Shown: positions 12,706 to 46,553 of the stretch, piece by piece
Position numbering within the stretch: the stretch's first letter is position 1
How the letters are laid out: every line of letters begins with the position of its first letter
Source of the DNA: an uncultured Chromatiales bacterium
GTDB taxonomy: Bacteria > Pseudomonadota > Gammaproteobacteria > CBFCYW01
NCBI GenBank assembly: GCA_965602395.1
Contig: CBFCYW010000004.1
Location: forward strand, 5,643 to 69,642
Direction: 5' to 3'
DNA: 64,000 nucleotides
Program-made: the position numbers and the translations under genes
The notes under the pieces: generated by a model
Database searches by the model: none
What the model saw: only the letters and a program-made list of their open reading frames with translations
Told to the model about the DNA's origin: nothing

Positions 12706-12715
12706 ACCGCGCCAG

Positions 12716-14295: not shown

Positions 14296-14494
14296 CGCCG
14301 TTCCGTGTCGAAGGTGGTTTCGGGGTCGCGCATGTTAACCAAGTTTGGCGACGATTACCGCCAACCGCTGCCGCGGCTCCTGCCGCTGTCCGGATCGCCA
14401 TCACCAGCGCCGCCGGAAGTGTCGCCAGCGCCGCTTTGCTGCACCTGCGAATGCGCTTAACATTGCCGACCTGTCCAAACCCGGGGATCTCCTC

Positions 14495-15082: not shown

Positions 15083-15127
15083 CGCGCAGCCAGCGGCAAC
15101 AGAACCCCCACCTCCACGAGGCCCCAC

Positions 15128-15622: not shown

Positions 15623-15632
15623 GCACCGCCGC

Positions 15633-16361
15633 GTGGCCGCGCTGTTCATCTCCGACCTGCACCTCGACCCGCAGCTGCCGGCCACCGTCGACGCCTGCCT
15701 GCGGCTGCTGCGCGGGCCGGCGGCCGACTACCCGGCGCTGTACATCCTCGGCGACCTGTTCGAGTACTGGATCGGCGACGACGCCCCGGCCCAAGCGCTG
15801 GCGCCGGTGCTCGACGCGCTGGCCGCGCTGGCCGCGCGCGGCACCGCGCTGACGGTGATGCACGGCAATCGCGACTTCCTCCTCGGCGACGACTTCGCGC
15901 GCCGCTGCGGCTGCCGGCTGGTCGCCGACGATCAGCTGCTGGAATGCATCGGCGGCGTGCCCAGCCTGCTGCTGCACGGCGACACCCTGTGCACCGATGA
16001 CATCGACTACCAGCGCTTTCGCGCCAGCGCGCGCGACCCGGCCTGGCAGGCAGACTTCCTCGCCCGGCCGCTGGCCGAACGCCGCGCCATCGTGCAGGGG
16101 CTGCGCGACAAAAGCCGCGCGGCGATGCGCGACAAGCAGGCGCAAATCATGGATGTCAACGCCGATGCGGTGGCTGCGGCGATGCGCGAGCACGGCGTGC
16201 GCCGGCTGATCCACGGCCACACCCACCGCCCCGCCCTGCACCGCTTCACGCTGGATGGCGACGCCGCCGAGCGCTGCGTGCTCGGCGACTGGCGCGCCGA
16301 CGGCGCGATGCTGGCGCGCTGCGATGAGAACGGCGCGCTGGAGCTGTTTCGCTGGCGCTGA
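15633..16361 (+). CDS. lpxH: UDP-2,3-diacylglucosamine hydrolase LpxH
   Basis: GTG start gives VAALFISDLHLD (E. coli MATLFIADLHL); calcineurin-like metallophosphoesterase motifs GDLFEYW, GNRDF, HGHTHRP; immediately downstream of ppiB as in E. coli. Confidence 0.88.
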   Translation: MAALFISDLHLDPQLPATVDACLRLLRGPAADYPALYILGDLFEYWIGDDAPAQALAPVLDALAALAARGTALTVMHGNRDFLLGDDFARRCGCRLVADDQLLECIGGVPSLLLHGDTLCTDDIDYQRFRASARDPAWQADFLARPLAERRAIVQGLRDKSRAAMRDKQAQIMDVNADAVAAAMREHGVRRLIHGHTHRPALHRFTLDGDAAERCVLGDWRADGAMLARCDENGALELFRWR

Positions 16362-16391
16362 GCGGCGCGAGGCCGCGATGACAGCGGCGAG

Positions 16392-17549: not shown

Positions 17550-17819
17550 CGGCGGCGACTCCCGGTGGTGTTGCCCCACATTATGCCCGCCGCCGCCCCG
17601 CCCCGGCGAGCACCCTGCGACGCCGCGCTCAGGCGTCGGTGCGGGTTTTCTGCGGGTCATAAACGGGCGTGCGCTCGACCGTCGCGGCGCAGGCGAAGTC
17701 CACCTCGCCGCCGGCGAGCGAGTCACCGTGCGCGGCGACGATGCCGGCGCTGCGCGCGTTCTTCAACTGGATCGTCGCCGAGGCGGCGGGCTGATCCGGC
17801 GGGCCTGCCCGCCGGGCAC

Positions 17820-17854
17820 AAAAAAACCCGGCGACCGCGAAGCCGCCGGGTTTT
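17820..17854 (-). terminator. rho-independent terminator downstream of the cytochrome c gene pair
   Basis: AAAAAAA, stem CCCGGCG / CGCCGGG with a 10-nt loop, then TTTT; on the minus strand the hairpin is followed by TTTTTTT. Confidence 0.65.
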
Positions 17855-17883
17855 GTCGCGCCTGCTGGCCGCGCGCTGCTGTG

Positions 17884-18216
17884 CTAGCGCTCGACCGGGG
17901 TACGCAGGCCGTCCTGCGCGGCGAAGTAGGCGGCGATATCCTCCATGTCCTGCTCGGACAGTGGCGCCGCCATGCCGGCCATGATCGGATTCTGGCGAAC
18001 GCCGGATTTGTACTCCTGCAGGGCGCGCACGAGGTAGTCGGCGTGCTGGCCGGCGAGCGTCGGGTTGATCGGGATCGCGCTGTTGCCGTCGGCGCCGTGG
18101 CAGGCGGCGCAGGGCGCGGACTTGGCCTTGCCGGCGGCGGCGTCACCGCCCGCCTGGGCGGACAGCGGCAGGCTGGCGGCGGCGAGCAGGGCGATGGCTG
18201 CAATTGCCTTGTTCAT
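17884..18216 (-). CDS. monoheme class-I cytochrome c (c4 half-domain / c552-553-like) with signal peptide
   Basis: Start at MNKAIAAIALLAAASLPLSAQA; single CAACHG heme-binding motif; downstream Met ligand region NPIMAGMAAPLSEQDMEDIAAYFA. Confidence 0.8.
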   Translation of the reverse strand: MNKAIAAIALLAAASLPLSAQAGGDAAAGKAKSAPCAACHGADGNSAIPINPTLAGQHADYLVRALQEYKSGVRQNPIMAGMAAPLSEQDMEDIAAYFAAQDGLRTPVER

Positions 18217-18226
18217 ATTCTGCCCC

Positions 18227-18559
18227 TCACTCGGCGTTGGCGAAGTACGCCGCGATGTCGGCCATGTCCTGCTCGGACAGGGACGCCGCATTGGCGTGCA
18301 TGGTTTCGTGGCCGCGCTGGCCGGCCTTGTAGGCCTTCAGGGCGGCGACGAGGTATTCGGCGTGTTGACCACCCAGCTTCGGCACCTTGTAGGTGGGATG
18401 GGCGTTGGTGTAGTTGGGGATGCCGTGGCAGCCGAGGCAAGTCTCGGCCTTGATGCGCCCCTGCTCGGCGTCACCGGCGGCGAGCGCGCCGGTGGCGGGC
18501 GCCAGGGCCAGCACGGCGGCCAGCGCGGCGGCGCGGCTCAGTCGGGTGGTTGCTTTCAT
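18227..18559 (-). CDS. monoheme class-I cytochrome c (c4 half-domain-like) with signal peptide
   Basis: Start at MKATTRLSRAAALAAVLALAPATGALA; CLGCHG heme motif; SLSEQDMADIAAYFA tail paralogous to the neighbouring gene. Confidence 0.8.
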   Translation of the reverse strand: MKATTRLSRAAALAAVLALAPATGALAAGDAEQGRIKAETCLGCHGIPNYTNAHPTYKVPKLGGQHAEYLVAALKAYKAGQRGHETMHANAASLSEQDMADIAAYFANAE

Positions 18560-18809
18560 TGTGTCCTGCTCAGTTGTATTGGCGGCGGCGGACGCGCGAC
18601 CGTGCTCGTCGCTTCCCGCCCGCCCCGGCGGATGCTTTCTTGGCGGATAGTTTTTTCGCGCGTGGGCGATTCTACGTTTACTCGCCGGCATTTCAACTGT
18701 GCGGCGCCGCAAGCGCGGCGCAGACCGGTGACCGCGCGATATCCGCAGCGGTCGTCACAATGCCGGCACAGAACCGGCACAGCGACCCGCCGCAGCGCTG
18801 CGCGCCCGG

Positions 18810-20738
18810 TTACTCGGCCAGCGCCAGCAGCATGCCGTTGAGGCGGCGCACGAAGCCGGCGGAATCCTCCAGCTGGCCGCCCTCGGCGAGTACCGCCTGG
18901 TCGAACAGCAGCTGCGACCACTCCCCGAAGCGGTCCTCATCCGCCTCGCCGTCCATGCGTTTGAGCAGCGCGTGTTCGGCGTTGATCTCCAGCGCCGGGC
19001 TGCTGCTGGGCACGGCGTGGCCGACCTGCTTCATCAGCTGCTGCATGTGCAGCGCCATATCGTGCTCGCCAGCCACCAGACAGGCGGGAGAGCTGGTCAG
19101 GCGATCGGAGACGCGCACCTCGCTGACCTGCTCGCCGAGTGCCGACTGGATGCGCTCCAGCAATGGCTTGGCGGCTTCGGCGGCCTGCTCGCGGGCTTTT
19201 TTTCTGTCCTCGTCGTCGCCGGACAGATCCAGCTCGCCCTTGGCCACCGAGCTGAACGACTTGCCAGCGTATTCGGAGAGGTGCGACATCATCCACTCGT
19301 CGACCCGATCGCCCATCAGCAGCACTTCGATGCCCTTGTCGCGGAACACCTCCAGATGCGGGCTGTTGCTGGCCGCGGCGAGGCTGTCGGCGGTGATGTA
19401 GTAGATCTTCTCCTGGCCCTCCTGCATGCGCTCGATGTAGGCATCCAGCGAGGCACCGGGCTGCTCCGCGCCCTCATCGGCGGTGGAGTGAAAGCGGCAC
19501 AGCTTGAGGATCTGCTCGCGATTGGCGAAGTCCTCGGCCGGGCCTTCCTTGATCACCTGGCCGAACTCGGCCCAGAAATCGGCGTACTTGTCCGGCTCTT
19601 TTTCGGCCATCTCTTCGAGCAGGCCCAGCACGCGCTTGACGTTGCTGCCGCGGATCGCCTCGATAACCTTGTTGGATTGCAGGATCTCGCGGCTGACGTT
19701 GAGCGGCAGATCGTTGGAATCGACCAGCCCGCGCACAAAGCGCAGGTAGCGCGGGATCAGCTTCTCCGCGTCGTCCATGATGAACACCCGCTGCACGTAC
19801 AGCTTGATGCCGTGCATGTGGTCGCGGTCGTACAGATCGAAGGGCGCGCGCGCCGGCAGATAGAGCAGCGAGGTGTATTCGTACTTGCCCTCGACGCGGT
19901 TGTGGCTCCAGGCCAGCGGGTCTTCGAAATCGTGGCAGACCTGCTTGTAGAAGGCGCGGTACTCATCGTCGTCGATATCGCGCTTGCTGCGCGTCCACAT
20001 GGCGCTGGCGCTGTTGACCGTCTGCCACTGGGGCTGTGGCGGCTCGGATGGCTGATCGTCCTCGCCCTCCTCTGCCGGTGGCGCCGGCGGCGTCTCCAGC
20101 ATCTGCACCGGGAAGGTGATGTGGTCGGAGTATTTCTTGATGATGCTCTTCAACCGCCAATCGTCGAGGAACTCATCGCAATCCTCGCGCAGGTGCAGCA
20201 CCACCTCGGTGCCGCGCTCGGCCACCTCCAGCTCGCTGATGGTGTAGCCGCCGCTGCCGTCGGACTCCCAGCGGGTGCCGGCATCGGCCGGATCACCGGC
20301 GCGGCGGGTGCTCAGCGTGACCCGGTCGGCGACCACAAAAGCCGAATAGAAGCCGACGCCGAACTGGCCGATCAGCGCCGCATCCTGCTGCTGGTCGCCG
20401 GTCAGCGATTCGAGGAATTGCCTGGTGCCGGATTTGGCGATAGTGCCGATGTTGGCGATCACCTCGTCGCGGCTCATGCCGATGCCGTTGTCGCGAACCG
20501 TCACGGTGCGCGCCTCGCGATCGACCGAGACGCGCAGGCGCAAGTCGCCGTCATCCTCGTACAGCGAGTTGTCGGAAAGCGCCTCGAAGCGCAGCTTGTC
20601 GCAGGCGTCAGAACCGTTGGAGATCAGCTCGCGCAGGAAGATCTCCTGATTCGAGTAGAGCGAGTGGATCATCAGCTTGAGCAGCTGGCTGACCTCGGCC
20701 TGAAATTCCATCGTCTGGCTGTGTGCCTCGGTACTCAT
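18810..20738 (-). CDS. htpG: molecular chaperone HtpG (Hsp90)
   Basis: 642 aa; N-terminal GHKL ATPase motifs ([34 protein letters not shown]); full-length co-linearity with bacterial Hsp90. Confidence 0.95.
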
Positions 20739-20825: not shown

Positions 20826-22730
20826 TCAATCCTGAGCTGCGTCGCCGCCCACATCCCCGGCGGCGCGCGGCGCCAGCAGCAACTGCTGCATGCGCTGGCG
20901 CAGCACGGCGCGGCGCTCCGGCTTGTCGGTCTCATCCAGCAGGGTCTGGTAGAGGCGCCGCGCGTCGCCCACCAGCCCGGCGTCGGCCAGCGTCTCGGCA
21001 GCGCGATAGCGCGCCGACTGCCCCCACTGGTCGCGGCCGCCGGTCTCCAGCAGCGTTGCCGAGCGCAGATAGCGCCAGGCCGCCTCGCTGTAGCGGCCGA
21101 GCGCGGCCAGCGAATCGGCCTGCCAGAAATGCAGCTCGCGGTGCTGGCGCGGCGTCACCAGGCGCGGCTGCAGACGCTGCATCAAACCGATCGCCGCCTC
21201 GTGGGATTCAACCGCCTGCAGATCGAAAACCACCTGCAGCAAGCGGTCGATCTGCTCGGCATCGAGTTGCGACTGCTCATCGAGCAGCGTCTCCAGCGCC
21301 GCAACACCGGCCTCGATCTGCCCGCCGATGACCAGCACGCGAGCGCGGCGCAAGCGCCAGGCAAAGGCGTCGACACCCTCCGGCAGGCGCTCCAGCGAGG
21401 CCAGCAGCCGCGAGGCCAGCGCGATGTCCTCGCGGCCCAGGGCCTCGTCCACCAGTCGCTGGCGCAACGCCACCGGCAGCTCGTCGAGCGTCGCGAAGCG
21501 CGCCTGATCGAGAAACAGCAGCAGCACCAGATCGGTGTCGGCCGCACCCTCGCCGGCACTGCTGCCGCCGCTGGGCTCGATCGCGGCGACGCGCTCGGCG
21601 AGCCGGATCAGCGCGCGCTCGCGCGGCCCCGCTGCGGCCTGCTCGGCGAGCAGCGCCAGCAGCGCACGGGCCTTCACCGGCGTGTTGGCCGCGGCCGCCG
21701 CATCGACCGCCGCCAGCCAGCCGCGCTCGTCGCCGCTGAGCAGCTGCGCGCGATTGGCGGCCTGCTCGCCGTATTCGCGCCAGGCGCGCCACAGCTCGGC
21801 GGCATCCACCACCGGCAGGGCATCGCCACCGCGCCGCGCACCGGCCAGCAACAGCGCCTGCTCGGTGGCGTGGGCGGCCAGCCCGGGGTTGTCGCGACCG
21901 CGCGCAGCCTCGGCGGCGACCCGCCAGTAATCGGCGCGCATCGCACGCGGATTGGCCGGGTTGCGGGCGCGCTCGCTGGCGGTGACCCAGACCTTGCCGG
22001 CGGCCAGATCGCCGGCGCGCAGGCGCGCCAGCAGCAACAGCGCGCCGGGCAGCGCCTGGCGCTCGGCCGCGGACAGCGCCAGCACCCGCGAGGCCAGCCC
22101 GGAGCGCAGCCAGACCTCGGCGCGCAGCTGCGCCCACTCGGCGTCCTGCCCGGGGTAATCCTGCTGGTAGCGACGCAGGGCGAGGCGCGCGTCGTCGATG
22201 CGATCGCCGATCAGATAGGCGCGGATCACCAGCCGCCGCCACAGCGCCAGTTCGGCGGTGTCGGCGCGCGCACCGTGGCGCCAGATCAGGCCGCGCAACT
22301 CGGCCAGCGCCTCGTCGGCGCGCTGCTCCTCCAGCCACAGCCAGGCGCGCTGGCCGAGTGCCCAGCGCTGCAATTTCACCGGCAGCCGATGGTGTACTTC
22401 GCGCAGCCGCTCGCGGGCCTTGGCCCATTCCTGCCAGCGATTGAGGATGCCGAGGCGGCCGCGCTCGTACTCGAACCAGCCGGCGAGATCGTCCTCGGCC
22501 GCCGGCTGGCGGCGGTCGAGCAGTGCCAGCGCCAGCCCCGGCGCACCACTGGCGGCGATGTGCTCGATCTGCGCCAGCGGCGTGTCGTCCGCCGCACCGG
22601 CCGGCGGTGCCAGAGCGAGCATTGCGAGCAGCAGCGCGACCAGCGGCAGAACCCGCCGGCGCCGCGGCTGGCAGCGCGGCTGGCAGATCGGCGTGAGTGG
22701 ATGATGGAGCGGGCGGTGGCTTGCGGGCAT
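20826..22730 (-). CDS. hypothetical secreted protein, Ala/Arg/Leu-rich (~634 aa), probably all-helical TPR-like
   Basis: The frame stays open across 1.9 kb. Start chosen at MPASHRP, followed by the predicted signal peptide RRVLPLVALLLAMLALAPPAGAA. Repeated W/R/A/L helix-like segments. No recognisable catalytic motifs. Confidence 0.55.
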   Translation of the reverse strand: MPASHRPLHHPLTPICQPRCQPRRRRVLPLVALLLAMLALAPPAGAADDTPLAQIEHIAASGAPGLALALLDRRQPAAEDDLAGWFEYERGRLGILNRWQEWAKARERLREVHHRLPVKLQRWALGQRAWLWLEEQRADEALAELRGLIWRHGARADTAELALWRRLVIRAYLIGDRIDDARLALRRYQQDYPGQDAEWAQLRAEVWLRSGLASRVLALSAAERQALPGALLLLARLRAGDLAAGKVWVTASERARNPANPRAMRADYWRVAAEAARGRDNPGLAAHATEQALLLAGARRGGDALPVVDAAELWRAWREYGEQAANRAQLLSGDERGWLAAVDAAAAANTPVKARALLALLAEQAAAGPRERALIRLAERVAAIEPSGGSSAGEGAADTDLVLLLFLDQARFATLDELPVALRQRLVDEALGREDIALASRLLASLERLPEGVDAFAWRLRRARVLVIGGQIEAGVAALETLLDEQSQLDAEQIDRLLQVVFDLQAVESHEAAIGLMQRLQPRLVTPRQHRELHFWQADSLAALGRYSEAAWRYLRSATLLETGGRDQWGQSARYRAAETLADAGLVGDARRLYQTLLDETDKPERRAVLRQRMQQLLLAPRAAGDVGGDAAQD

Positions 22731-22853
22731 GTGAGTTTTCCGGAGGGCGAACGCAAAACGGCGGGCGCCCCTGGCGAGGCGCCCGCCGCACAGATTACCG
22801 CGCAAACCGCGCTTTGTCGGCAGCCGCCGCTCGCCGGGCTGCCGCGCAGCGGC

Positions 22854-34087: not shown

Positions 34088-34855
34088 TTATAACGTGAAA
34101 GTGTCGCCGCCACGCAGGCGCAGCAGATCAAAGCCGACGATGGCTTCCAGGCACTCGCCGTAGGTCTGGTCTTCGGCACCCGGCTTGAGGTGCGAGATGG
34201 CCACTCGCGGCCGATGGCGGCGCAACTTGGCCATGTCGTCGGCGAGCAGATCCGGGCAGTAGTGCTTGGAGACCTCGGCCAGCCAGCGATTGGCATTGCC
34301 GAAGCCGACTTCGACGATCAGCAGATCGAGGCGATCGCGGGCGTTGAGCGCGGCCCACAGGGTGTCGTTGGTGGTGGTATCGCCGGAGAAGCAGAAGGCC
34401 GAGGCGCCGTTGTGCACGTAGTAACCGGCGCCGGGCACCACGTGATTGACCTCGATCATCTCGATCTCGCGGCCAGCGACCTCGATGCTCTCGCCGGGGC
34501 GCATTTCTTCGAACACCAGCACCGGCGCCTGCTTGCTCGGCAGCTCGGCGAAGTTTGGCCAGATCGACCAGTTGAAGATGTGCTCGCGCAGGGCTTGCAG
34601 CGTCTCCGGGCGGGCGTGCAGGCGCAGCGGCGGGACGTCCTTACCGAACAGGGTGTCGACCATGAACGGCAGGCTGACCAGGTGGTCGAGGTGCGAATGG
34701 GTGAGAAAAATATGCCGCACGCGGCGCATCTCGTCGACAGTCATGCTGCCGACGCCGGTACCGGCATCGATCAGAATGTCATCGTCGATCAGCAGCGAGG
34801 TAGTGTCGAGCCCTCGGCCGACACTACCACTACAACCCAGCACGCGCAGATTCAT
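34088..34855 (-). CDS. MBL-fold metallo-hydrolase (class-II cyclic-nucleotide phosphodiesterase-like)
   Basis: Start at MNLRVLGCSGSVG; HxHxDH motif THSHLDHLVSLPF; overall beta-lactamase-fold pattern. Confidence 0.6.
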   Translation of the reverse strand: MNLRVLGCSGSVGRGLDTTSLLIDDDILIDAGTGVGSMTVDEMRRVRHIFLTHSHLDHLVSLPFMVDTLFGKDVPPLRLHARPETLQALREHIFNWSIWPNFAELPSKQAPVLVFEEMRPGESIEVAGREIEMIEVNHVVPGAGYYVHNGASAFCFSGDTTTNDTLWAALNARDRLDLLIVEVGFGNANRWLAEVSKHYCPDLLADDMAKLRRHRPRVAISHLKPGAEDQTYGECLEAIVGFDLLRLRGGDTFTL

Positions 34856-35061
34856 CGAAAGCTTACAAGCCGTCAATATTGTGACGCACCATGCTATCAC
34901 GGTAGGCCGTGCAGCCAAGCCGCACAGCCACCATTTGCGAGTGCATTCACACAACTTTTCAGAGCGTTCACGTGGCGCCCTTCTAGCCGGCACCAACGCT
35001 GTGAGATGATTACATCTGGACCTTGTCCATCACCCTCCGCCACCAAAGGAATGCCCCCGAG

Positions 35062-37857: not shown

Positions 37858-38061
37858 GGGAGGCGCCTCGCGGCAAGCCATATTCAGCACGCAGAGCACC
37901 GTGTGGGGGGATGGGTAAAGACCAGAATAACATGCCTGGCGCACGGTTCCGCAAGCGCAAAACCCGCTATTTGTCAAACAGATATGGGGGCGGCCGCCAG
38001 GATCGGGAACGGCGTCGCAAACGGATTCGTCGACGTTGTCACAGAAACGCCGCGCGGCGCG

Positions 38062-38931
38062 CTAGCGCACCAGTTCCGGCACGCCCAGCTGCTCCACCAA
38101 GCGCTCGGTCTCGCGCAGAACCAGCGCCATGTTGGAATCGCGCACCGTCGGCAGCAGCTGGCGGGCCTTGCGCACCTGGGCGTAGTCCAGCTCGGCGACG
38201 ATCAGCTCCTCGTCCTCGCCGGCCACCGCCAGCTCGCGGCCGAAGGGGTCGATGATCCGCGAGCCACCCCAGAAGGTCAGCCCGCGCTCCTTGCCGCAGC
38301 GGTTGGCGAGCACCGTTGGCGCGCCGTACATCATCGAATAAAAGCGCGCTGCGAGCCGCCAGCCGCCGGGGTTGTCGAACTCCGCGCCGACCGCCTCGAC
38401 GCCGGAGCTGATCGGTGTCAGCAGCAGCGTGGCGCCGTGCAAAAAGGCCAGATGGGTCAGCGCCGGATTCCACACATCGGCGCAGATCAGCAGCCCGGCG
38501 CGCCAGTCGCGATCGAATTCGCAGGTGTCGACAAAGCGCCCGCTGGCGTAGTGCTTGCCCTCGTCGAGCAGGCCGTAGTTGGGCAGGTTGACCTTGCGGT
38601 GGATGTAGATCACCTCGCCGCGCTGCAGGATCGCCGCGGCGTTGTAAAACTGCGCCGCCGGCCCCTCTTCGATAAAACCGAGCACCACGCGCATCTCGCC
38701 GGCGGCCTCGGCGAGTTGTTGCAGGCGCGGATCATCGCGGTGCACTGCGGCATCGAGCAGGCGCTCGGGGCCGTGGTGGCCGACCAGCGACAGCTCCGGC
38801 AGCATCAGCAGATCCAGCCCCTCGGCGCGGCCGCGGCCGATCCACGTAAAATGGGCGTCGAGGTTGGCGTCGATATCGCCGACTTCACTGGCGAACTGGG
38901 CTGCGCCGACGCGCAGTACGGAATGGCTCAT
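38062..38931 (-). CDS. carbon-nitrogen hydrolase family protein (nitrilase/amidase superfamily)
   Basis: Start MSHSVLRVGAAQFASEVGDIDANL. Glu-Lys-Cys catalytic-triad context (LLMLPELSLVGH..., RKVNLPNYG, LLICADVWNP) as in the CN-hydrolase branch. Confidence 0.75.
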   Translation of the reverse strand: MSHSVLRVGAAQFASEVGDIDANLDAHFTWIGRGRAEGLDLLMLPELSLVGHHGPERLLDAAVHRDDPRLQQLAEAAGEMRVVLGFIEEGPAAQFYNAAAILQRGEVIYIHRKVNLPNYGLLDEGKHYASGRFVDTCEFDRDWRAGLLICADVWNPALTHLAFLHGATLLLTPISSGVEAVGAEFDNPGGWRLAARFYSMMYGAPTVLANRCGKERGLTFWGGSRIIDPFGRELAVAGEDEELIVAELDYAQVRKARQLLPTVRDSNMALVLRETERLVEQLGVPELVR

Positions 38932-39042
38932 GGGGGATCTCCACGGTGCAGGGGTGGGGCAACGGCACACCATAGCGCCGACCGGTGGAGGCTGTCAGCG
39001 GCCGGCGTGCCGCGCGTCGCCGTACGGCAAGCGCTGCCGCGC

Positions 39043-39516
39043 TCAGCGGGCGATGGCTGCGAAGCGGGCGGCGCACAGGCGCGCCAGATCGGCCGGTGCC
39101 AGTTCGATCTCCAGACCGCGCCGGCCGGCGCTGACGTGCATCGTCTCCAGCGCTTCGGCGCTGCTGTCGATGAAGGTGCGCAGGCGGTTCCGCTGCCCCA
39201 GCGGGCTGATGCCGCCGACGATGTAGCCGGTGGCGCGCTCGGCGAGGCGCGGCTCGGCCATCTCCACCCGCTTCACCCCGGCGGCACTGGCGATGGCCTT
39301 GAGATCCAGCTTCGCCGCGACCGGCACGACACCCACCAGCAGGCCGCGCGCGCCCTCGCCGCAATCCACCAACAGGGTTTTGAAAACAATCGCCGGATCG
39401 AGGCCGAGCTGCCGGACCGCCTCTTCGCCGTAGGCTGCGACTCCGGGATCGTGATCGTAGCGGTGCACGCGGTGAACCACGCGGGCGCGTTTGGCGGCGT
39501 TGATGGCTGGGGTCAT
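39043..39516 (-). CDS. ybaK: Cys-tRNA(Pro)/Cys-tRNA(Cys) deacylase YbaK-like (aminoacyl-tRNA trans-editing domain)
   Basis: 157 aa; DPAIVFKTLLV...GYIVGGISPLGQ matches the YbaK/ProX deacylase family. Confidence 0.75.
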   Translation of the reverse strand: MTPAINAAKRARVVHRVHRYDHDPGVAAYGEEAVRQLGLDPAIVFKTLLVDCGEGARGLLVGVVPVAAKLDLKAIASAAGVKRVEMAEPRLAERATGYIVGGISPLGQRNRLRTFIDSSAEALETMHVSAGRRGLEIELAPADLARLCAARFAAIAR

Positions 39517-39659
39517 GGCGGCGCAGTCTAAGGCGGCGGATCAGCGCGGATTATGCCGCGTCGCGATGCGCCCCACCACGCCCCGCCCCGCCCCGCCCCA
39601 CCACGCCACAGGCAGCGCGTGGCGGGCACTGGCGGCAGGCGCGGCAGTGGCGAGGAAAA

Positions 39660-40727
39660 CTAGGCAGACAGGGGCGCGGGCAGGGCGACGCCGTGCTGCT
39701 CGGCCAGCTGCTGCAGTTCGGCGATCATTTTCGCGTCCAGCCGCACGCCGTGCGCGGCGCTCTCGGCCATGATGCGCCAGCGCGACTCGCCGGGCAGACG
39801 CACCTCGCCGCCGTCCGGGCTGGCGGCCTTCACCTGCCCGACCAGCTCCTCCAGCCGCGCGTAGTAGCTGTCCATCGGCAGCAGCCGGGCGAGATCGATA
39901 GCGATGAAGCAGTGGCCGTTGTCGCCGTTGCCGCTGAAGTCGTTGAACATCGAGCGCACGCCGGAGGACAGCGCCGCGCCGCTGATCACCGCGGAGAGCA
40001 GCTCGACGAAGAACACCAGTCCCGCGCCCTTGGCGCCGCCGAAGGGCAGCATGGCGCCCTCGCCGGCCTTGGTGGGGTCGGTCATCGGCAGGCCCTGGCG
40101 GTCGACGAGGATGCCCTCGGGCAGGGTTTCGCCGTTCTGCGCGGCGCGGATCACGCTGGCGCCGGAGACTGCGGCGGTGGCCATGTCGAGGATGATCGGC
40201 TCGCCGTTGCCGCGCGGCGCGCCGATCGCCAGCGGGTTGGTGCCGAACACCGGGGCGACGCCGCCGAAGGGCGCCAGCTTGGCGATCGAGTTGCTGGTGG
40301 CGATGCCGAGCATGCCGCGGCGCGCGGCCAGATCGACGAAATAGCCGCCGGTGCCGAAGTGGTTGCTGTTGCGCGCGGCGATCACCCCGACGCCGCTCTC
40401 GCCGGCCAGTTCGATGGCTTTTTGCATGCCCAGATGGCCGACCACGTGGCCGAAGCCGCCGCCGCCGTCGAGCTTGCCGATGGACGGCCCGCCGATCTCA
40501 AAACGCGGCTCGCAGGGGCATTTGATCAGCCCGTCGACGAAGCGCTTGAGGTAGGCGGGCAGACGCCACACGCCGTGGGTCGGGCGGCCGATGCGATCGC
40601 TCCACAGCAGGGCCTCGGCGAAGATCCGCGCCTGTTCGCGGTCTGCGCCCTCGCCGCTGAGCACGGCGACGGCGAAATCGGTCAGCGCGTCGGCGTCGAA
40701 GCGGCGCGCATCGACGGCGGCACTCAC
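39660..40727 (-). CDS. Ldh_2-family NAD(P)H-dependent oxidoreductase (malate/L-lactate dehydrogenase type 2)
   Basis: NSNHFGTGGYF and surrounding Gly-rich patterns of the Ldh_2 family. The real start is GTG at 40725-40727, and the overlap GTGA is shared with the upstream stop. The N-terminal 120 codons of the ORF-track frame overlap the upstream gene and are rejected. Confidence 0.7.
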   Translation of the reverse strand: MSAAVDARRFDADALTDFAVAVLSGEGADREQARIFAEALLWSDRIGRPTHGVWRLPAYLKRFVDGLIKCPCEPRFEIGGPSIGKLDGGGGFGHVVGHLGMQKAIELAGESGVGVIAARNSNHFGTGGYFVDLAARRGMLGIATSNSIAKLAPFGGVAPVFGTNPLAIGAPRGNGEPIILDMATAAVSGASVIRAAQNGETLPEGILVDRQGLPMTDPTKAGEGAMLPFGGAKGAGLVFFVELLSAVISGAALSSGVRSMFNDFSGNGDNGHCFIAIDLARLLPMDSYYARLEELVGQVKAASPDGGEVRLPGESRWRIMAESAAHGVRLDAKMIAELQQLAEQHGVALPAPLSA

Positions 40728-41968
40728 GCCTTGCTCGCCTTGAGCTTGTGGTCGCGCTTGGCGAGGCCCAGACGCGCCATCGCCAGGCCGGCGAAGTACT
40801 TGATGTCGTCGGCCAGCATCGACAGGAATGGCCTGGGATCGCTGAGGCTGAAGTAGGGAAACACCAGCTTTTTGTGCGACATGGATTTGCGCCAGTCGCT
40901 CCAGCTCAGGCCGCGGGCGCGCTTCTCCTGACGGAAGGCGCGCAGGTCGGTGAGCGGCGACCAGATGGCCACCTGCGGCTCGCAGCCGGCGCTCGGCTCG
41001 ACGTGCTGGCCGGTGATGTGCGCGTAGGTGATCAGCGCCGATTCGACACCGCTTTGCACCAGCTGCTCCTGCACCGCGGTGAAGCGGGTGTTGCACTCGA
41101 TAACCTTCAACTGGCCGCTGCGCTCGTCGCGCTTGAACTCCAGATTGCCGAAGCCGCGAAAATCCATCGCATCGAAGAACTGTCGCGCGGTGGCTTCCAC
41201 ATCCGGTAGCACGTCGGTGATCTGGTAGGTGCCGCTGCCCTGGTTCATCGGGTAGCGCCGCACGCAGCGCTTGGTGAAGTGGAACAGCTCGCGGCCGTCT
41301 TCGTCGCGGTAGGTGTAGAAACTGCAGTTGTGGTCATCCGGGCCGGGGATCATCTCGCAGATCATGAAACCGATATCGCGCTCGATCAGCTCGTAGCCCT
41401 TGCGGCGCAGCTCCTCGGCGTCGTCGACGCGGGCGTACTTGCCGCCGTAGATGCGCTGGAACAGGTGCGAGTAGTGCGGCTTGAGGATCGCCGGGTAGAC
41501 CACGTCTTCGCGCAGCGCGGCATCCACGTCCTCGCGGCGCGCAACGTCCCAGAAGGCGGGGATCGGCACACCGGCGTCGCGGGCGATCTCCAGCGTGCGC
41601 TGCTTGTCGAGCAGATCGAGAATCTGCTGCGGGTCGTTGCGTTCGAGCAGGTAATCCTCGGCCAGCGCGTCGTGGTTGCGGGCGACGTATTCGAGGGCGT
41701 CGTCGCCACAGACCAGCAGCACCGAGCCCTTCAGCTGCGGGTACTTGCCGCTGCGCAGCAGCTCTTCGAAGTAAGCCTCCGGCTCGCTGCCGGCGGGCAC
41801 CGGGAAGACTTCTTCGCAGTAGCGCGACAGCAGCGCCGCGTGCGGACTCATGCAGGCGCGCACGGTGATGCCGGCGCGGCCGAAGCTGCGCATCAGCGAC
41901 AACGCATTGGCGGCGCCGCCGAGAATCAGTACCGGCGCCTTGTTTTCGACGCGAATCCTCTCAGCCAT
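40724..41968 (-). CDS. ATP-grasp ligase, COG3919 / D-aspartate-ligase-like
   Basis: MAERIRVENKAPVLILGGAANALSLMRSFGRAGI pre-ATP-grasp domain, then the ATP-grasp core (YPAILKPHYS..., GFMICEMIPG, LEFKRDERSGQLKVIECNTRF). Confidence 0.7.
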   Translation of the reverse strand: MAERIRVENKAPVLILGGAANALSLMRSFGRAGITVRACMSPHAALLSRYCEEVFPVPAGSEPEAYFEELLRSGKYPQLKGSVLLVCGDDALEYVARNHDALAEDYLLERNDPQQILDLLDKQRTLEIARDAGVPIPAFWDVARREDVDAALREDVVYPAILKPHYSHLFQRIYGGKYARVDDAEELRRKGYELIERDIGFMICEMIPGPDDHNCSFYTYRDEDGRELFHFTKRCVRRYPMNQGSGTYQITDVLPDVEATARQFFDAMDFRGFGNLEFKRDERSGQLKVIECNTRFTAVQEQLVQSGVESALITYAHITGQHVEPSAGCEPQVAIWSPLTDLRAFRQEKRARGLSWSDWRKSMSHKKLVFPYFSLSDPRPFLSMLADDIKYFAGLAMARLGLAKRDHKLKASKA

Positions 41969-43076
41969 TGACGATGCTCTTGGGGCTGGTCGCGGGCGCC
42001 CGCGGGCGCTGCGAAAAAATGTAGTCCAGGGCCAGCTGGCCCACCGGGCAGGCCCGGCCGCGCTCGGCGATCAGGTCGTGGTGGTGCAGTGCCGGCGTGG
42101 TATTGATTTCGTTGATGCCGCCGCCGCTGTCAGCCAGCGACACGCCGACATCCGGGCAGATCACATCGATGCCCAGCAGCTGCACGTCGAGCACCGACTG
42201 CACCTGTCGACCGAGGGCGTGATAGCTGGCGTGCACCCCGGCAAGCAGTTGGTGGTTGTCGCGCGAGCCGTTCTGGTTGACCGCCCCCTTGACCTCGATG
42301 CGCTGCTCCTCGGCGGGCACCGATTTCACGCTCAGCCCCTGGGCACTCAGGTGGTTGTCCACACCCGGATCGCAGGTCAGCGCCGACAGGCCGGTGTAGG
42401 GCGGCCCGCCGAGGCGCATCTGATTTTCCAGCGCGATCAGCGTGCGGATGTCGTGGCGGCCGTCGCCGATCACCGTTGGCGGGTCGCGACGGATGACGTC
42501 GATCAGCTCGCCGGCGAGATACAGAAAGCGGTAGTTGTCGCCCGGCAGCTGCTCCTCGACGAGGAAGCGCGTGCCGGCGCGCGCCGCGGCGAAAGTGGCA
42601 CGGCGCAGCGCTGTGTCATCCTCGATGCCGGTGGTCACACCGCGCCCGCCGGCGCCATCCACCGGCTTGACCACCACCGGGCGGCCGAGCTGGCTGAGAA
42701 AGCGCTGTGCGGTCTCGATTTCGCCGAGATCAAAGGCCAGGTGGCGCGGCACCGGCAGGTCGATGTCGGCGATCAGGCGCTGCGACAGGGCCTTGTCGCC
42801 GGCGATGGAGAGCAGCACGTGGTCGTCGATCTGCATCTCGAAGCCGTTGACGTAGGTCAGTGCGTCACCGCGACGGATGCGCAGCCAGCGGCCGCCGAGC
42901 TCTTCGAGCTCCGCGCCCATGGCCTCGGCGGTGCGCTGCCAGTAGTCGCTGTAGTAGCGGGTGCGCAGGGCGGCGTAGTCGCGCCTGAGGCGACGGGCTT
43001 CGATGTTCAGGGCTTGTCGGCCGCGCTCGGTGTAGCGCAGCAGGCGCGCGAGATTGCGTTGCAGGGTGGAACTCAT
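41961..43076 (-). CDS. ATP-grasp ligase resembling the N-terminal ATP-grasp domain of cyanophycin synthetase (no Mur-ligase domain)
   Basis: VVVKPVDGAGGRGVT, FLVEEQLPGDNYRFLYLAGELIDVIRRDPPTVIGDGRHDIRTLIALEN and LGIDVICPDVGVSLADSGGGINEINTTPALHHH align motif-for-motif with the CphA ATP-grasp region. Confidence 0.7.
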   Translation of the reverse strand: MSSTLQRNLARLLRYTERGRQALNIEARRLRRDYAALRTRYYSDYWQRTAEAMGAELEELGGRWLRIRRGDALTYVNGFEMQIDDHVLLSIAGDKALSQRLIADIDLPVPRHLAFDLGEIETAQRFLSQLGRPVVVKPVDGAGGRGVTTGIEDDTALRRATFAAARAGTRFLVEEQLPGDNYRFLYLAGELIDVIRRDPPTVIGDGRHDIRTLIALENQMRLGGPPYTGLSALTCDPGVDNHLSAQGLSVKSVPAEEQRIEVKGAVNQNGSRDNHQLLAGVHASYHALGRQVQSVLDVQLLGIDVICPDVGVSLADSGGGINEINTTPALHHHDLIAERGRACPVGQLALDYIFSQRPRAPATSPKSIVNG

Positions 43077-43096
43077 GCCTGTATCCGGCGCCCCGC

Positions 43097-43825
43097 TCAG
43101 TCGACGTTGACGCAGCCGGCGCTTTCCAGCGCGACGTCGACCCAGTCGTTGTTAAAAATGCCCTTTTTGACGTTCTCTTCGTAGCCGGCCGAATTCTGCT
43201 TTTGCCGGGTCAGGCGTTCGAGGGTGTCCTCGGCAAAATCCTGCCGCACCACCACCACGCCATCGCTGTCGCCGACCACCAGATCACCCGGATTGACCAC
43301 GATGCCGCCGCAGCAGACCGGGAAGTTGATCTCGCCGGGACCGCGATGCAGCGGGCCGATGGGGGTGATGCCGCGGGCGAACACCGGGAAGTTGATGGCG
43401 CGGATGTCCTCCACGTCGCGGATCAGGCCATCGACGATGAAGGCCTGAATGCCGCGGTGCTGGGCCTTGGTGGAGATCAGATCGCCGACGATGGCGTTCA
43501 TCTCGCTGGAGCCGGCGTCGATGACCAGCACGTCGCCGGGTTTGGCCACGTCCAGCACCTTGTGCACCATCAGGTTGTCGCCGGGGTAGCACTTGACCGT
43601 GGTCGCCGGCCCGCAGATGGGGGTATTGGTGGTCTGGTTTTTGATCTCCGGCCGCATGGTGTACAGCCGGTTGAGCATGTCGGAGACATCGGCCGCGGCG
43701 AACTGGCTGTAGGCCTCGACCATCTTCGCGCTGGGGCGCTCGATGTGATTGCGGATGCGAAAGCCCGGGCCGCGGTGCAGCTGGGCGGATTTCGGGGTTT
43801 CGGTTTTCGGCGCGGCGGTGCTCAT
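43097..43825 (-). CDS. RraA-family protein (RNase E inhibitor / 4-hydroxy-4-methyl-2-oxoglutarate aldolase / oxaloacetate decarboxylase fold)
   Basis: 242 aa; swivelling beta/beta/alpha fold motifs VLVIDAGSSEMNAIVGDLISTKAQHRGIQAFIVDGLIRDVEDI typical of RraA/MenG-like proteins. Confidence 0.7.
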   Translation of the reverse strand: MSTAAPKTETPKSAQLHRGPGFRIRNHIERPSAKMVEAYSQFAAADVSDMLNRLYTMRPEIKNQTTNTPICGPATTVKCYPGDNLMVHKVLDVAKPGDVLVIDAGSSEMNAIVGDLISTKAQHRGIQAFIVDGLIRDVEDIRAINFPVFARGITPIGPLHRGPGEINFPVCCGGIVVNPGDLVVGDSDGVVVVRQDFAEDTLERLTRQKQNSAGYEENVKKGIFNNDWVDVALESAGCVNVD

Positions 43826-43915
43826 TGAGTATCTCTCCGGGTTGATGACTGCGGCGGCCGCCGATCGGCGGCCGCGGAATGTAGCGTGGCGCCAGTCGCG
43901 CCGTTCGCCGTCGCC

Positions 43916-44971
43916 TCAGGCGACTTCGACCACCTGGCCGGGCTCGCCTTCGACCCAGGGGCCCTGGCGGATGCCGGTGTTGTAGTGGTCGCCGAATTCC
44001 CGGGTCAGCTCGCGCGCGTTGGGGATGTTGATCCACTTGCGCAACAGCAGGCGCTTCTCCTCCGGCTGATCCGAGTCGGTGAAGGCGGCGCGGGTGTGGA
44101 ATACCGTGTGGTTGCTCAGCAGCAGCAGGTCGCCGGATTCGAGCATCACATCGGTGCCGTACTCCTCGCACACGGAGAGTTCGGCAACTTTGTTGATCGC
44201 GTCCTTCTCCAGCTGGCTGAGCGGCGGCACGCCCGGCAGCTGCTCGGCGGTGAGCATCGCCTTCTGATTGAAGCGGCAGCTCAGCTTGCCCTGGTGGTAA
44301 GAGTAGACCGGTACCCGGTGCGCGGTGATATCGGCGTACTTGCCCGGCGGGCCACTGCCGCGCAGGTTGTAGTGGAAGCCGGTGTACAGCGGTTCGAGAT
44401 ACTCGCGATGATTGGCGAGAATCTCGTTGTAGATCGCCATCGAGCTGGCCAGGGTGTTGATGCCACCCTGTTTGGCCTGGCGGACGCACAGCAGCGAGAC
44501 GATGTCGCCGGAATCGCAATGCGGGGTCAGCTCGGCGTTGGTGGTGTAGCCGCGCACGGCGATGTCGTCGTAGCTCATGCCGCGATCGGCAACGTGATCG
44601 ATCAGCGTGCCCTGCGGGTCCTGCACGATCGAATGGCCGATATGCGCCGCAACCCCGGCGTACAGCAGCTCCTGCTGCTCGATGGTCTTGCCCTGCACCG
44701 GCATGCCCTTGAGCACGGCGATGCCGCGGCCGTCTTCGATCTGGTCGCGCAGCTTGCCCACCAGCGGGCCGATGTGCGGCAGCGGGAAATCCGCCTCGCG
44801 GATCTCGCCGTGCGCAAGCCCCTTCGCCTGCACCTGCTGCAGTGCGGATTCGATCTCCGAGATCTCCTCGGCACTCAGCTCGTAGACCCAGGAGCGGTCG
44901 TTTTCCATATCGGCCCGGGTCCACGCCGAAGCGTCGTTCACCGGTTCCAGCAACATCTCGTATTCAGCCAT
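43916..44971 (-). CDS. TauD/TfdA-family (clavaminate-synthase-like) Fe(II)/2-oxoglutarate-dependent oxygenase
   Basis: Start MAEYEMLLEPV; GIAVLKGMPV N-terminal motif; HCD facial-triad start (TPHCDSGD); distal His (NHTVFHTRAAF); length and spacing resemble CAS-like amino-acid hydroxylases. Confidence 0.7.
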   Translation of the reverse strand: MAEYEMLLEPVNDASAWTRADMENDRSWVYELSAEEISEIESALQQVQAKGLAHGEIREADFPLPHIGPLVGKLRDQIEDGRGIAVLKGMPVQGKTIEQQELLYAGVAAHIGHSIVQDPQGTLIDHVADRGMSYDDIAVRGYTTNAELTPHCDSGDIVSLLCVRQAKQGGINTLASSMAIYNEILANHREYLEPLYTGFHYNLRGSGPPGKYADITAHRVPVYSYHQGKLSCRFNQKAMLTAEQLPGVPPLSQLEKDAINKVAELSVCEEYGTDVMLESGDLLLLSNHTVFHTRAAFTDSDQPEEKRLLLRKWINIPNARELTREFGDHYNTGIRQGPWVEGEPGQVVEVA

Positions 44972-45287
44972 TTCCAGCAATTCTCCGTGTCCGGCTGCGC
45001 TTCGGCGCGCTGGCCGCACAGCCTCGGTTCGGTATCTTTGGTTCCGCCGACCGACCTGTGCAGGGGCTGCGGAAGTGTCCGGGCGATTCTATCCATTGCC
45101 ACAGCGAGGTAATGCGAACTGTATCTTAACTGCCGCGGCAGACGCCCCGGCGCACCGCCAAGCAGCCGGCAAAGCCCACGCTATCAGCGCCACAGGCGAT
45201 GCGCTAGAGTGGCGCGCGGCAGCAGAACCGACCGCCATCGGAACGCTCCAAAGACACAGCACAAACGCACCGCGGGAGGCGCAGCAG

Positions 45288-46553
45288 ATGCAGTTTTCCA
45301 GTTTCGGCGAGCAGTTCACCGGCCCCTGCGGCACCGTGCAACTGATGGACGACCTCGGCAGCGCCATGGCCGGCGATGCGCCGGTGTGCATGCTCGGTGG
45401 CGGCAACCCCGGCCGCGTACCGCAGATCGAGGCGCGCTGCGCCGAACTGCTGGCCCGGCTGGCCACCGACGACAACGCCATCCATCGCCTGTTCGGCAGC
45501 TACGCCGGCCCGGCTGGCGAACAGCGCTTCATCGCCGCTCTCGCCGAACTGCTCGCCAGCGAGTATGGCTGGGCCATCAGCGAGCGCAACATCGCCCTTA
45601 CCAACGGCAGCCAGAACGCATTCTTTTACCTTTTTAACCTGTTCGGCGGGCGCTGGCCGGACGGTAGCGAAAAGAAAATCCTGCTGCCGCTGGCGCCGGA
45701 GTACATCGGCTACGGCGATGTCTTCGTCGCCGGCCGCCACTTCATCGCCAACCGGCCGAGCATCGAAATGCGCGGCGACGGCCTGTTCAAGTACCACGTC
45801 GACTTCGAAACCCTGGAAGTCGGCGACGACATCGGCGCCATCTGCGTATCGCGCCCCACCAACCCCACCGGCAACGTGCTCAGCGACGCCGAACTGGCGC
45901 AGCTCGACCGCATCGCGCAGAGCCGCGGCATCCCGCTGATCGTCGACAACGCCTACGGCCTGCCCTTCCCCGGGCTGATCTTCACCGGCGGCACCCCGCT
46001 ATGGCACGACAACATCGTGATGTGCCTGAGCCTGTCCAAATTCGGCCTGCCCGGTTTGCGCACCGGCATCGTTATCGCCCGCGAAGAGATCATCGACGCC
46101 ATCAGCCGCCTCAACGCGATCGTCAACCTGGCCCCCGGCAGCGCCGGCGCCGCGCTCACCGCACCGCTGGTGGAGAGCGGCGAAATCATCAGCCTCGGCC
46201 GCGAGGTGATCCGCCCCTTCTACCAGCGCAAGGCCGAGCAGGCGCTGGGCTGGCTGCGCGAGGCGCTCGGCGACTACCCGGTGCACGTGCACGTGCCGGA
46301 GGGCGCGCTGTTTCTGTGGCTGTGGTTCGAGGGCCTGCCGATCAGCAGCGCCGAACTCTACCGGCGGCTGAAGGCGCGGCGCGTCATCATCGTCCCCGGC
46401 GAGCACTTCTTTCCCGGCCTGGAAGGCGACGACTGGCGCCACAAGCGCGAATGCATCCGCCTGACCTACTCGCAGGACGAGACCAGCGTGCGCGAGGGCA
46501 TCCGCATCATTGCCGCAGAGGCCATCGCCGCCTACGACGAAGCCACCGGCTGA
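45288..46553 (+). CDS. avtA: valine--pyruvate aminotransferase (AvtA-like, class I/II PLP aminotransferase)
   Basis: Start MQFSSFGEQFTGPCGTVQLMDDLG; PLP lysine context SLSKFGLPGLRTG; overall co-linearity with AvtA. Confidence 0.75.
   Translation: MQFSSFGEQFTGPCGTVQLMDDLGSAMAGDAPVCMLGGGNPGRVPQIEARCAELLARLATDDNAIHRLFGSYAGPAGEQRFIAALAELLASEYGWAISERNIALTNGSQNAFFYLFNLFGGRWPDGSEKKILLPLAPEYIGYGDVFVAGRHFIANRPSIEMRGDGLFKYHVDFETLEVGDDIGAICVSRPTNPTGNVLSDAELAQLDRIAQSRGIPLIVDNAYGLPFPGLIFTGGTPLWHDNIVMCLSLSKFGLPGLRTGIVIAREEIIDAISRLNAIVNLAPGSAGAALTAPLVESGEIISLGREVIRPFYQRKAEQALGWLREALGDYPVHVHVPEGALFLWLWFEGLPISSAELYRRLKARRVIIVPGEHFFPGLEGDDWRHKRECIRLTYSQDETSVREGIRIIAAEAIAAYDEATG

Follow-up and report, generated by a model that had tools for sequence, protein, structure and literature searches.

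The operon and its conserved core

The DNA analysed here, called the window throughout, is a stretch of 64,000 nucleotides from an uncultured Chromatiales bacterium, and its positions 39660-44971 are occupied by five consecutive, tightly packed minus-strand genes. These encode a TauD-family oxygenase, an RraA-like protein, two ATP-grasp proteins (hereafter AG1 and AG2) and a protein of the Ldh_2 family. The packing had been described in an earlier reading of the letters without database searches, and this sequence-only reading is borne out by the list of open reading frames (ORFs), by the sequence and by an independent gene call of the source metagenome contig (ENA ERZ27241918 k141_893656), in which the same five genes appear with the same starts. 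The genes and two associated non-coding features are:

43916-44971, minus strand: TauD-family oxygenase gene, 351 amino acids (aa), the first gene
43097-43825, minus strand: RraA-like gene, 242 aa, after a 90-bp gap from the TauD gene
41961-43076, minus strand: AG1 gene, 371 aa, after a 20-bp gap from the RraA gene
40724-41968, minus strand: AG2 gene, 414 aa, with an 8-bp overlap with the AG1 stop, ATGGCTGA
39660-40727, minus strand: Ldh_2 gene, 355 aa, its GTG start overlapping the AG2 TGA stop (GTGA)
43854-43875, minus strand: perfect 9-bp GC stem-loop, GCGGCCGCC-N4-GGCGGCCGC, within the TauD/RraA spacer, without a U-tract
44972-45284, no strand: divergent intergenic region between the oxygenase gene and avtA, the presumed operon promoter region

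The genes had been taken to be translationally coupled throughout. The junctions cited for this (the 8-bp AG1/AG2 overlap, the GTGA junction and the 20-bp RraA/AG1 gap) are all present, but the oxygenase gene is separated from the RraA gene by a 90-bp structured spacer and is not coupled to it. The spacer RNA folds into GC-rich hairpins (-48 kcal/mol, z = -2.05), and its 9-bp stem is kept in the sister contig L090 (90% identical), where the loop is changed. This stem-loop is possibly an mRNA-processing or stability element that separates the oxygenase from the genes that follow. Within window 43854-43925, the stop codon of the oxygenase gene is placed in the loop of a small hairpin, and the 9-bp stem-loop comes after it.

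The conservation of the operon was followed through AG1, homologues of which are rare: at least 106 clusters were found in a collection of 5.8 billion proteins, of which 8000 candidates were scored, and a pattern-based scan of 185,579 species-representative genomes gave at least 100 confirmed matches. Eighty loci from GTDB species representatives (designated L and a number) were kept for comparison by tblastn of the window proteins and clustering of the flanking ORFs, with gene calls made by a GC3>GC1>GC2 rule that was checked on the window locus. The flanks reach up to 10 kb per side, and many contigs are cut. Glycan genes were counted in them as glycosyltransferase, Bac_transf, Wzx, Wzy, MBOAT and deacetylase genes. 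The loci fall into three classes:

47 of 80 loci: RraA, Ldh_2 and ATP-grasp genes; glycan gene in the flanks of 27
17 of 80 loci: only one of RraA and Ldh_2 (many contigs cut); glycan gene in the flanks of 6
16 of 80 loci: AG1-AG2 only, mostly Calditrichia, KSB1 and Acidobacteriota; glycan gene in the flanks of 12

The complete core spans Alpha- and Gammaproteobacteria, Actinomycetes and others, and its usual order is RraA-AG1-AG2-Ldh_2. AG1 and AG2 are always paired, often with overlapping genes, and no other members of the cassette are as conserved as these two ligases. The five-gene order of the window is found again in L005, L015, L090, L091, L092, L094 and L095, which represent at least six lineages besides that of the window. 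Gene order recurs in unrelated contigs at 45-68% protein identity, and the overlapping AG1/AG2 and AG2/Ldh_2 stop/start junctions recur in independent gene calls of relatives. Furthermore, the pairwise distances of the four core proteins are correlated across 54 loci (Mantel r = 0.80-0.88, not reached by any of 500 permutations), which fits inheritance as a unit, with a contribution from shared organismal phylogeny. The neighbourhood comparison that had been suggested as a check on the sequence-only reading confirms the predicted co-inheritance, but the conserved unit is a four-gene core of RraA-like, AG1, AG2 and Ldh_2 genes and not the full set of five, the oxygenase being exchangeable. That the operon acts as one biosynthetic unit can be said with high confidence. 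Genes for an HpcH/HpaI aldolase and a 2-Hacid_dh protein in L002, L021 and L060 were considered as replacements for RraA and Ldh_2, an idea that was dropped because L002 has both sets and L060 keeps Ldh_2.

The divergent region upstream of the oxygenase gene is presumed from its position to hold the operon promoter; no sigma-70-like promoter was found at 44972-45284 or elsewhere in or around the operon. No minus-strand terminator was predicted inside or downstream of the operon, and Rfam and riboswitch searches of 38000-46500 gave chance-level matches only. The GC content of the operon (0.65-0.70) is inside the range of the window (0.59-0.73), and base composition gives no sign of recent transfer and no island. 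The five proteins match none of the PADLOC models for anti-phage defence. On the same strand, 143 bp downstream of Ldh_2 and with no predicted terminator between, lie ybaK (encoding Cys-tRNA(Pro) deacylase) and a carbon-nitrogen hydrolase gene (window 38062-39516); the Ldh_2-ybaK-hydrolase arrangement is kept only in L090. At the other end, the divergent avtA had been proposed to supply or remove a substrate of the pathway. This proposal was rejected: the gene encodes a bona fide, housekeeping AvtA that passes the valine-pyruvate transaminase equivalog (602 bits against 467), and it adjoins the operon only in L090, so that it is a neighbour rather than a member.

The five predicted enzymes

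The family assignments made from the sequence alone agree with Pfam and NCBIfam for all five proteins, the Pfam support for the ATP-grasp domains of AG1 and AG2 being weak. The expectation that no characterised pathway would be matched was also correct, in that all five proteins miss every NCBIfam equivalog cut-off, and no description of the gene combination was found in the searchable literature. Judged by their conserved residues, the five enzymes are apparently catalytically competent.

AG1 is matched by the NCBIfam cyanophycin synthetase models over residues 85-357 only (model positions ~205-475), with 162.8 and 157.5 bits where 877 and 850 are required. Cyanophycin has an Asp backbone with Arg side chains, and CphA2 polymerises beta-Asp-Arg dipeptides. 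The family profile of AG1 finds CphA2 (7ta5/8fxh) and then the G domains of CphA1 (7lgm/7lg5) among solved structures (1e-47 to 1e-54), and the GshB-like half of GshAB at 1e-41. AG1 has neither the N domain nor the Mur-ligase-like M domain that, with the G domain and an equivalog score, define CphA1 and CphA2. These G-domain-only matches agree with the earlier description of AG1 as a CphA-type ATP-grasp domain without the Mur-ligase half; sources currently label its homologues 'cyanophycin synthetase'. AG1 also resembles the ATP-grasp part of N-acetylglutaminylglutamine (NAGGN) synthetase (7.9e-32), and this part only (Ngg, TIGR03103, 110.5 against 569). Ngg itself is a fusion of GNAT and ATP-grasp domains with asnO as its partner; by the ORF list and Pfam, the operon has no GNAT domain and no Asn-synthase gene. 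Residues K137, E174, D304, E323 and N325 show complete or almost complete conservation (one exception in 90 copies). By analogy with the G domain of CphA1/CphA2 and with GshAB, AG1 would make an acyl-phosphate and add an amino-acid amine to it. In contrast to CphA1 and CphA2, it has as partners an unrelated second ATP-grasp protein, an RraA-like protein and usually an Ldh_2 protein.

The second ligase, AG2, is a carboxylate-amine ligase of the COG3919 type with weak Pfam and NCBIfam matches, and sequence and profile searches found no close relative among solved structures. Its AlphaFold model (pLDDT 94) has PurK, L-amino-acid ligases and PylC, and not RiPP (ribosomally synthesised and post-translationally modified peptide) macrocyclases, as neighbours in a structure search. 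Residues K163, E205, E291, N293 and R295 are likewise fully or almost fully conserved, with no more than two exceptions in 80 copies. The identity of AG2 to ATP-grasp ligases that act on free substrates (BL00235, RizA, BacD, PylC) is only 12-17%, and it differs from them in a conserved C-terminal helical extension with an 'SxxDPxP' motif. Its homologues carry the source names 'ATP-dependent carboligase' and 'D-aspartate ligase', and the likeness to a COG3919 D-aspartate ligase consists in that name. An amide-forming, biosynthetic role of the ATP-grasp pair, as first suggested, is the natural reading.

The RraA-like protein has a clear Pfam RraA-like match (1.6e-50) and passes the NCBIfam subfamily PRK06201 (248.9 against 231), which is named 'hypothetical protein'. 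Its nearest solved structure is the Pseudomonas putida aldolase-oxaloacetate decarboxylase for 4-hydroxy-4-methyl-2-oxoglutarate and 4-carboxy-4-hydroxy-2-oxoadipate (HMG/CHA; 3noj, 1.5e-38). D115, R136 and D137 of the window protein align with D102, R123 and D124 of 3noj, which we take to be its metal- and enolate-binding residues. R136 and D137 are invariant in 65 RraA-like proteins from cassettes, and D115 is found in 64 of the 65 (one N). The likeness to the HMG/CHA aldolases (LigK/ProA/PcmE, 3noj) thus extends to the RraA fold and the aligned D/R/D residues, but the window protein stays below both LigK/CHA-aldolase equivalog cut-offs (NF006731, 167.9 against 179; TIGR02798, 153.3 against 304.5), and there is no context of protocatechuate or gallate meta-cleavage.

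The Ldh_2 protein (Pfam Ldh_2, 7.8e-101) is nearest in NCBIfam to L-sulfolactate dehydrogenase, at 237.8 bits against a cut-off of 500 (NF040650). Its closest solved relatives are ComC (2x06, 2e-59) and the malate dehydrogenases 1v9n and 1vbi, with DpkA (1wtj) further away at 166 bits. Two histidines that are invariant in the Ldh_2 family have been named as candidate catalytic residues (PMC3527362). The window protein keeps both, in the motifs THG (H51) and NHFG (H123), together with the cofactor motifs GTNP, D181 and K233. It shares these features with ComC and the archaeal malate dehydrogenases, but it falls below the equivalog cut-off and the window has no context of coenzyme M synthesis or sulfonate degradation. 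A DpkA-type imine reductase activity is possible. Both histidines are kept in all cassettes with a TauD-type oxygenase and otherwise in L002 and L034 only. In nearly all other cassettes (range L007-L089; examples L062, L087 and L017) the second histidine is replaced by Phe, Tyr or Trp ('NSNFFG') and the first often by Phe or Gln, with the GTNP, Asp and Lys cofactor motifs conserved throughout. The window operon would thus represent a subtype with a canonical reductase. The homologue in the larger subtype may have lost its reductase function, or it may reduce an iminium, a reaction for which an acid catalyst is not required.

The oxygenase belongs to the TauD family (PF02668, 5.7e-24; 85.9 bits against a gathering score of 27), and its metal triad H151-x-D153...H292 is invariant across eight cassette-linked homologues. 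It had been described as a clavaminate-synthase-like hydroxylase of amino acids, a description that does not hold: the nearest solved structures are FrbJ (5eqn, 2e-53) and a 'predicted hydroxylase' (7n7v, 1.3e-44), and models of clavaminate synthases and amino-acid hydroxylases reach only E ~1e-3 (ClavSyn_CS1, 18.7 bits against 450; GntD, 15.6 against 345). FrbJ is the hydroxylase of the FR-900098 phosphonate pathway, and the window protein aligns with it over the full length with conservation of the metal-binding motif; unlike FrbJ, it has no phosphonate genes nearby (e.g. that for phosphoenolpyruvate (PEP) mutase) and is paired with an RraA-like gene.

In the window, L090, L005/6, L015, L091, L092, L094 and L095, the core has a FrbJ-like TauD gene beside it, always directly upstream of RraA. 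In about 20 loci of the non-TauD kind, the flanking position is taken by a protein of 220-330 aa without a Pfam match, which has invariant H-x-D...H/R residues and weak similarity to PhyH and WelO5 only. This protein is probably an unclassified iron/2-oxoglutarate (Fe/2OG) oxygenase, and the oxygenase is a variable, exchangeable fifth member of the cassette. Both types are present in L015, where two complete cassettes lie in tandem (~9300-20000), one per oxygenase type; the Pfam-less oxygenase follows one cassette, the TauD type precedes the other, and a Wzx-like gene is located upstream (5174-6643). Examples of the Pfam-less flanking protein, which is found in about 18 further loci, are:

L088:8222-9220
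L072:7960-8724
L070:8157-9155

In one further locus, L093:7227-9062, which lacks ATP-grasp and Ldh_2 genes, an RraA-like gene is paired with a TauD gene; their products share 53% and 66% identity with those of the window, so the oxygenase and the aldolase-like protein may share one small substrate. The pair is surrounded by genes for GT4 glycosyltransferases, two APH-family kinases and a secreted protein of 824 aa. The latter was considered as a fused AG1-AG2 and rejected, since it has no similarity to either ligase.

Proposed chemistry, genomic surroundings and fate of the product

The properties of the five proteins can be combined into a route to a 2-hydroxy acid that is joined through two amide bonds, a logic to which we give an even chance. 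The RraA-like enzyme would make or trim a 2-oxo acid by a pyruvate(-enolate) aldol reaction or an oxaloacetate-type decarboxylation, and the Ldh_2 protein would use NAD(P)H to reduce the 2-oxo group, giving a 2-hydroxy acid akin to malate or sulfolactate. The FrbJ-like Fe/2OG oxygenase would hydroxylate the building block or its precursor, or generate the building block oxidatively. AG1 and AG2 would form two successive, acyl-phosphate-mediated amide (possibly ester) bonds, with AG2, as the small-molecule carboxylate-amine type, joining the acid carboxylate to an amine, and AG1, as the CphA-G/GshB type, adding an amino acid to a free alpha-carboxylate. Pantothenate synthesis provides an analogy, since it also involves C-C bond formation, reduction of a 2-oxo group and ATP-dependent amide formation. 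The product would be an acidic non-sugar substituent of a cell-surface glycan, or a unit exported with one.

A lead on the acid comes from L011:11504-13182 and L016:14049-15634, in which homologues of ComA and ComB lie between AG1 and a divergent, full-length AG2. RraA and Ldh_2 are absent there, and the locus is inside a GT4/Wzy/deacetylase cluster of metagenome-assembled genomes of sulfur oxidisers. ComA is phosphosulfolactate synthase and ComB is phosphosulfolactate phosphatase; in the coenzyme M pathway these enzymes lead from PEP and sulfite to sulfolactate. Since the window Ldh_2 protein is also closest to sulfolactate and malate dehydrogenases, this occurrence points to one ligase using a 2-hydroxy acid that carries an anionic group in the beta position, and in L011 and L016 it suggests a surface-polymer substituent that would contain sulfolactate.

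The proposed fate of the product is derived from the surroundings of the relatives. Glycan-assembly genes are found in the flanks of 27 of the 47 complete cassettes and 12 of the 16 loci with the ATP-grasp genes only, with Bac_transf, GT2, GT4, Wzy_C, MBOAT and polysaccharide-deacetylase genes being common. A flippase-like gene, counted either as a Polysacc_synt/Wzx-type gene or as one for a 450-aa multi-pass membrane protein with an N-terminus weakly aligned to Polysacc_synt/Wzx, is present in the flanks of 15 of the 47 complete cassettes. The flippase association looks real but is not quantified; by our rough estimate, a random 20-kb stretch rarely holds a PST-family gene. The settings of the loci with the five-gene order range from glycan clusters to isolation:

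L092 and L094: Wzx-type (Polysacc_synt) gene followed directly by the five-gene set, the whole block inserted between rluC and sppA/maf/plsX
L095: five genes downstream of UDP-glucose dehydrogenase, Wzy, deacetylase, Wzx and AsnB-GT4 fusion genes
L015: Wzx-like gene upstream of the cassette
L005, L091 and the window: five genes stand alone

The position of relatives' cassettes beside Wzx-type flippases and glycosyltransferases makes a glycan substituent or exported unit the most likely kind of product. A functional precedent exists in the C-terminal ATP-grasp domain of Cj1438, which amidates the capsule glucuronate of Campylobacter jejuni HS:2 with a small phospho-amine made by neighbouring genes (PMC11800379). 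The common element is amide formation by an ATP-grasp enzyme on a sugar carboxylate inside a glycan cluster. Cj1438 differs in that its ligase is of a TupA-like subfamily, is fused to GT2 and is a single one, with no aldolase, reductase or oxygenase. The match of AG1 to ATPgrasp_ST is weak and sub-threshold (18.7 against 31.4).

Several observations weigh against parts of this scheme. The 64-kb window consists of housekeeping genes (lon, clpX, tig, cysS, htpG, ccm, ffh, rapA, pgi, panB and panC) and contains no glycosyltransferase, flippase or homologue of the alternative oxygenase, so that the acceptor or export machinery would be encoded elsewhere; the Wzx/Wzy-cluster location is seen in many relatives (27/47; L092, L094, L095) and not in the window. 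Likewise, no glycan genes were found near L005, L087-L089 or L091, and the counts of glycan genes are raw counts with no background control. The ComA/ComB case is that of one lineage (L011 and L016 are 88% identical), in which AG2 is 24% identical to the family. With one or both Ldh_2 histidines lost from most non-TauD cassettes, the reductase step is not uniform across the family. Proteins with the RraA fold can be non-enzymatic regulators, and the pair in L093 may mean that oxygenase and aldolase form a separate module. We infer what the substrates are, in which order the steps run and where the product goes, and a substrate is established for none of the five proteins. Weighing all of this, we assign the glycan or export fate, which rests on the context of the relatives, tentatively and at distinctly less than even confidence. 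The best explanation overall, in which the window carries the TauD-type form of a conserved cassette that is inherited as a unit and has the chemistry and fate described above, falls only slightly short of an even chance.

The main alternative keeps the same chemistry and has a free, soluble product: a hydroxylated pseudo-dipeptide would serve as an osmolyte, metallophore or antimetabolite, with no glycan involved. A small soluble molecule such as a compatible solute was also the original suggestion from the sequence. The absence of glycan genes from the window keeps this a live rival, as does the isolation of the cassettes in L005, L087-L089 and L091. AG1 resembles the ATP-grasp part of the osmolyte enzyme NAGGN synthetase as well as GshAB, the structural neighbours of AG2 (L-amino-acid ligases and PylC) are ligases of free substrates, and a PST/MOP-family protein beside the cassette could be a plain exporter. 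The glycan context of relatives disfavours the suggestion, in that genes for Wzx-like proteins, the c5-type membrane protein, glycosyltransferases, Bac_transf, Wzy and MBOAT proteins recur in many unrelated lineages, including that of L095. Nor is any dedicated regulator, TonB receptor or MFS/ABC exporter conserved with the cassette in the flanks of the relatives. A soluble product is unlikely by our estimate, to a degree that still leaves it a serious contender.

A second alternative has AG2 building a dimeric unit and AG1 polymerising it to a cyanophycin-like polyamide or polydepsipeptide, with MOP-family export in some taxa. The best solved relatives of AG1 (CphA2 7ta5 and 8fxh, and the CphA1 G domains) and the constant, often overlapping pairing of the two ligases would fit such a polymer. 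AG1, however, has no N and M domains and matches CphA at ~205-475 only, with scores far below the cut-offs; it resembles GshAB and NAGGN synthetase just as well, which fits a single-turnover ligation; and no cyanophycinase-like gene is conserved near the cassette in the flanks of the relatives. Polymer synthesis is accordingly regarded as improbable. Catabolic members do exist among the CHA/HMG aldolases of the RraA-like family, the Ldh_2 proteins (sulfolactate, pyrroline-2-carboxylate) and the TauD dioxygenases, and on that basis one could imagine that the genes serve catabolism or salvage, with a sulfonate, a compound of the hydroxyproline type or a product of aromatic meta-cleavage as the substrate. 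Such a role is very improbable, since two ATP-consuming ligases are the most conserved members, which is unexpected in catabolism; transporters, regulators and additional catabolic enzymes are not conserved with the cassette in the flanks of the relatives; and no catabolic equivalog cut-off is reached. A graspetide-like RiPP, whose small precursor peptide would be cross-linked by the ATP-grasp enzymes in the way suggested by the adjacent ATP-grasp gene pairs of microviridin-type clusters, is hardly credible, as AG1 is of the CphA/GshB type, neither a precursor gene nor a RiPP-type macrocyclase of the graspetide/microviridin kind was found, the cassette is not accompanied by a conserved small ORF of 60 aa or more, and the 90-bp and 20-bp spacers leave no room for a precursor.

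If we return to the glycan or export fate, a more specific form of it can be drawn, which in all its details is quite unlikely. An undescribed anionic building block, derived from a malate- or sulfolactate-like 2-hydroxy acid, would be joined by the two ATP-grasp ligases through amides to an amino acid and an amine acceptor, and would leave the cell through a dedicated MOP/Wzx-type membrane protein, as a glycan decoration or as a short polyamide resembling cyanophycin. Chemically distinct product families would then follow from the kind of oxygenase (FrbJ-like or of the Pfam-less HxD...H family) and from whether the Ldh_2 site is of the His/His or the Phe form.

A few neighbouring genes deserve mention in their own right. 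Genes for a TauE/SafE-family anion permease and an HbpS-like protein divergently adjoin RraA in all Aestuariivirga-type loci, which could be lineage synteny or a link to sulfonate or sulfite. A protein of ~530 aa, with a GINT1_N-like domain at its C-terminus, is repeatedly encoded next to the cassette in Rhodobacterales, Sphingomonadales and Thiotrichales. Two genes of the window itself were also recorded, of which the second has precomputed matches that include the Anti-Pycsar Apyc1 and PDEase_II families and probably encodes a housekeeping phosphodiesterase:

L087:7833-9088, L036, L042, L048, L058 and related Hyphomicrobiales loci: TauE/SafE and HbpS-like neighbours
L039:17878-19470, and downstream of the Wzx gene in L009 and L012: ~530-aa GINT1_N-like protein
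Window 20826-22805, minus strand: putative gene, 659-aa ORF beside htpG with no Pfam match at E <= 1e-5
Window 34099-34866, minus strand (L001:18211-18978): metallo-beta-lactamase-fold protein between ccsA-like and ffh genes

Known and new aspects of the cassette

The enzyme family of every part of the cassette is known, and so are pathways that use ATP-grasp ligases independently of nonribosomal peptide synthetases and ligases that decorate glycans. What is new is the combination, its wide but sparse distribution, the exchangeable oxygenase and the split in the Ldh_2 active site. The cassette occurs in several phyla, and many of its carriers are marine or sulfur-cycling bacteria. It is a well-defined orphan cassette that resolves no long-standing question, and as a set of four or five genes that is present in cultured strains it offers biochemistry a concrete target. 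Cultured bacteria with the four-gene core include Marinobacter sp. SS21 (L081), Rhodovulum iodosum (L065), Afifella pfennigii DSM 17143 (L064), Croceibacterium soli (L038) and Maritimibacter fusiformis (L041). To our knowledge, many bacterial O-antigens and capsules bear amide-linked amino-acid or hydroxy-acid substituents, the biosynthetic genes for which are mostly unknown. If the favoured explanation is true, the cassette would be a compact, portable module by which exported or surface polymers acquire a non-sugar group that is acidic and amide-linked, and it would provide a function for the PRK06201 subfamily of RraA-like proteins, for the stand-alone ligases that resemble the G domain of CphA, and for the putative oxygenases without a Pfam family.

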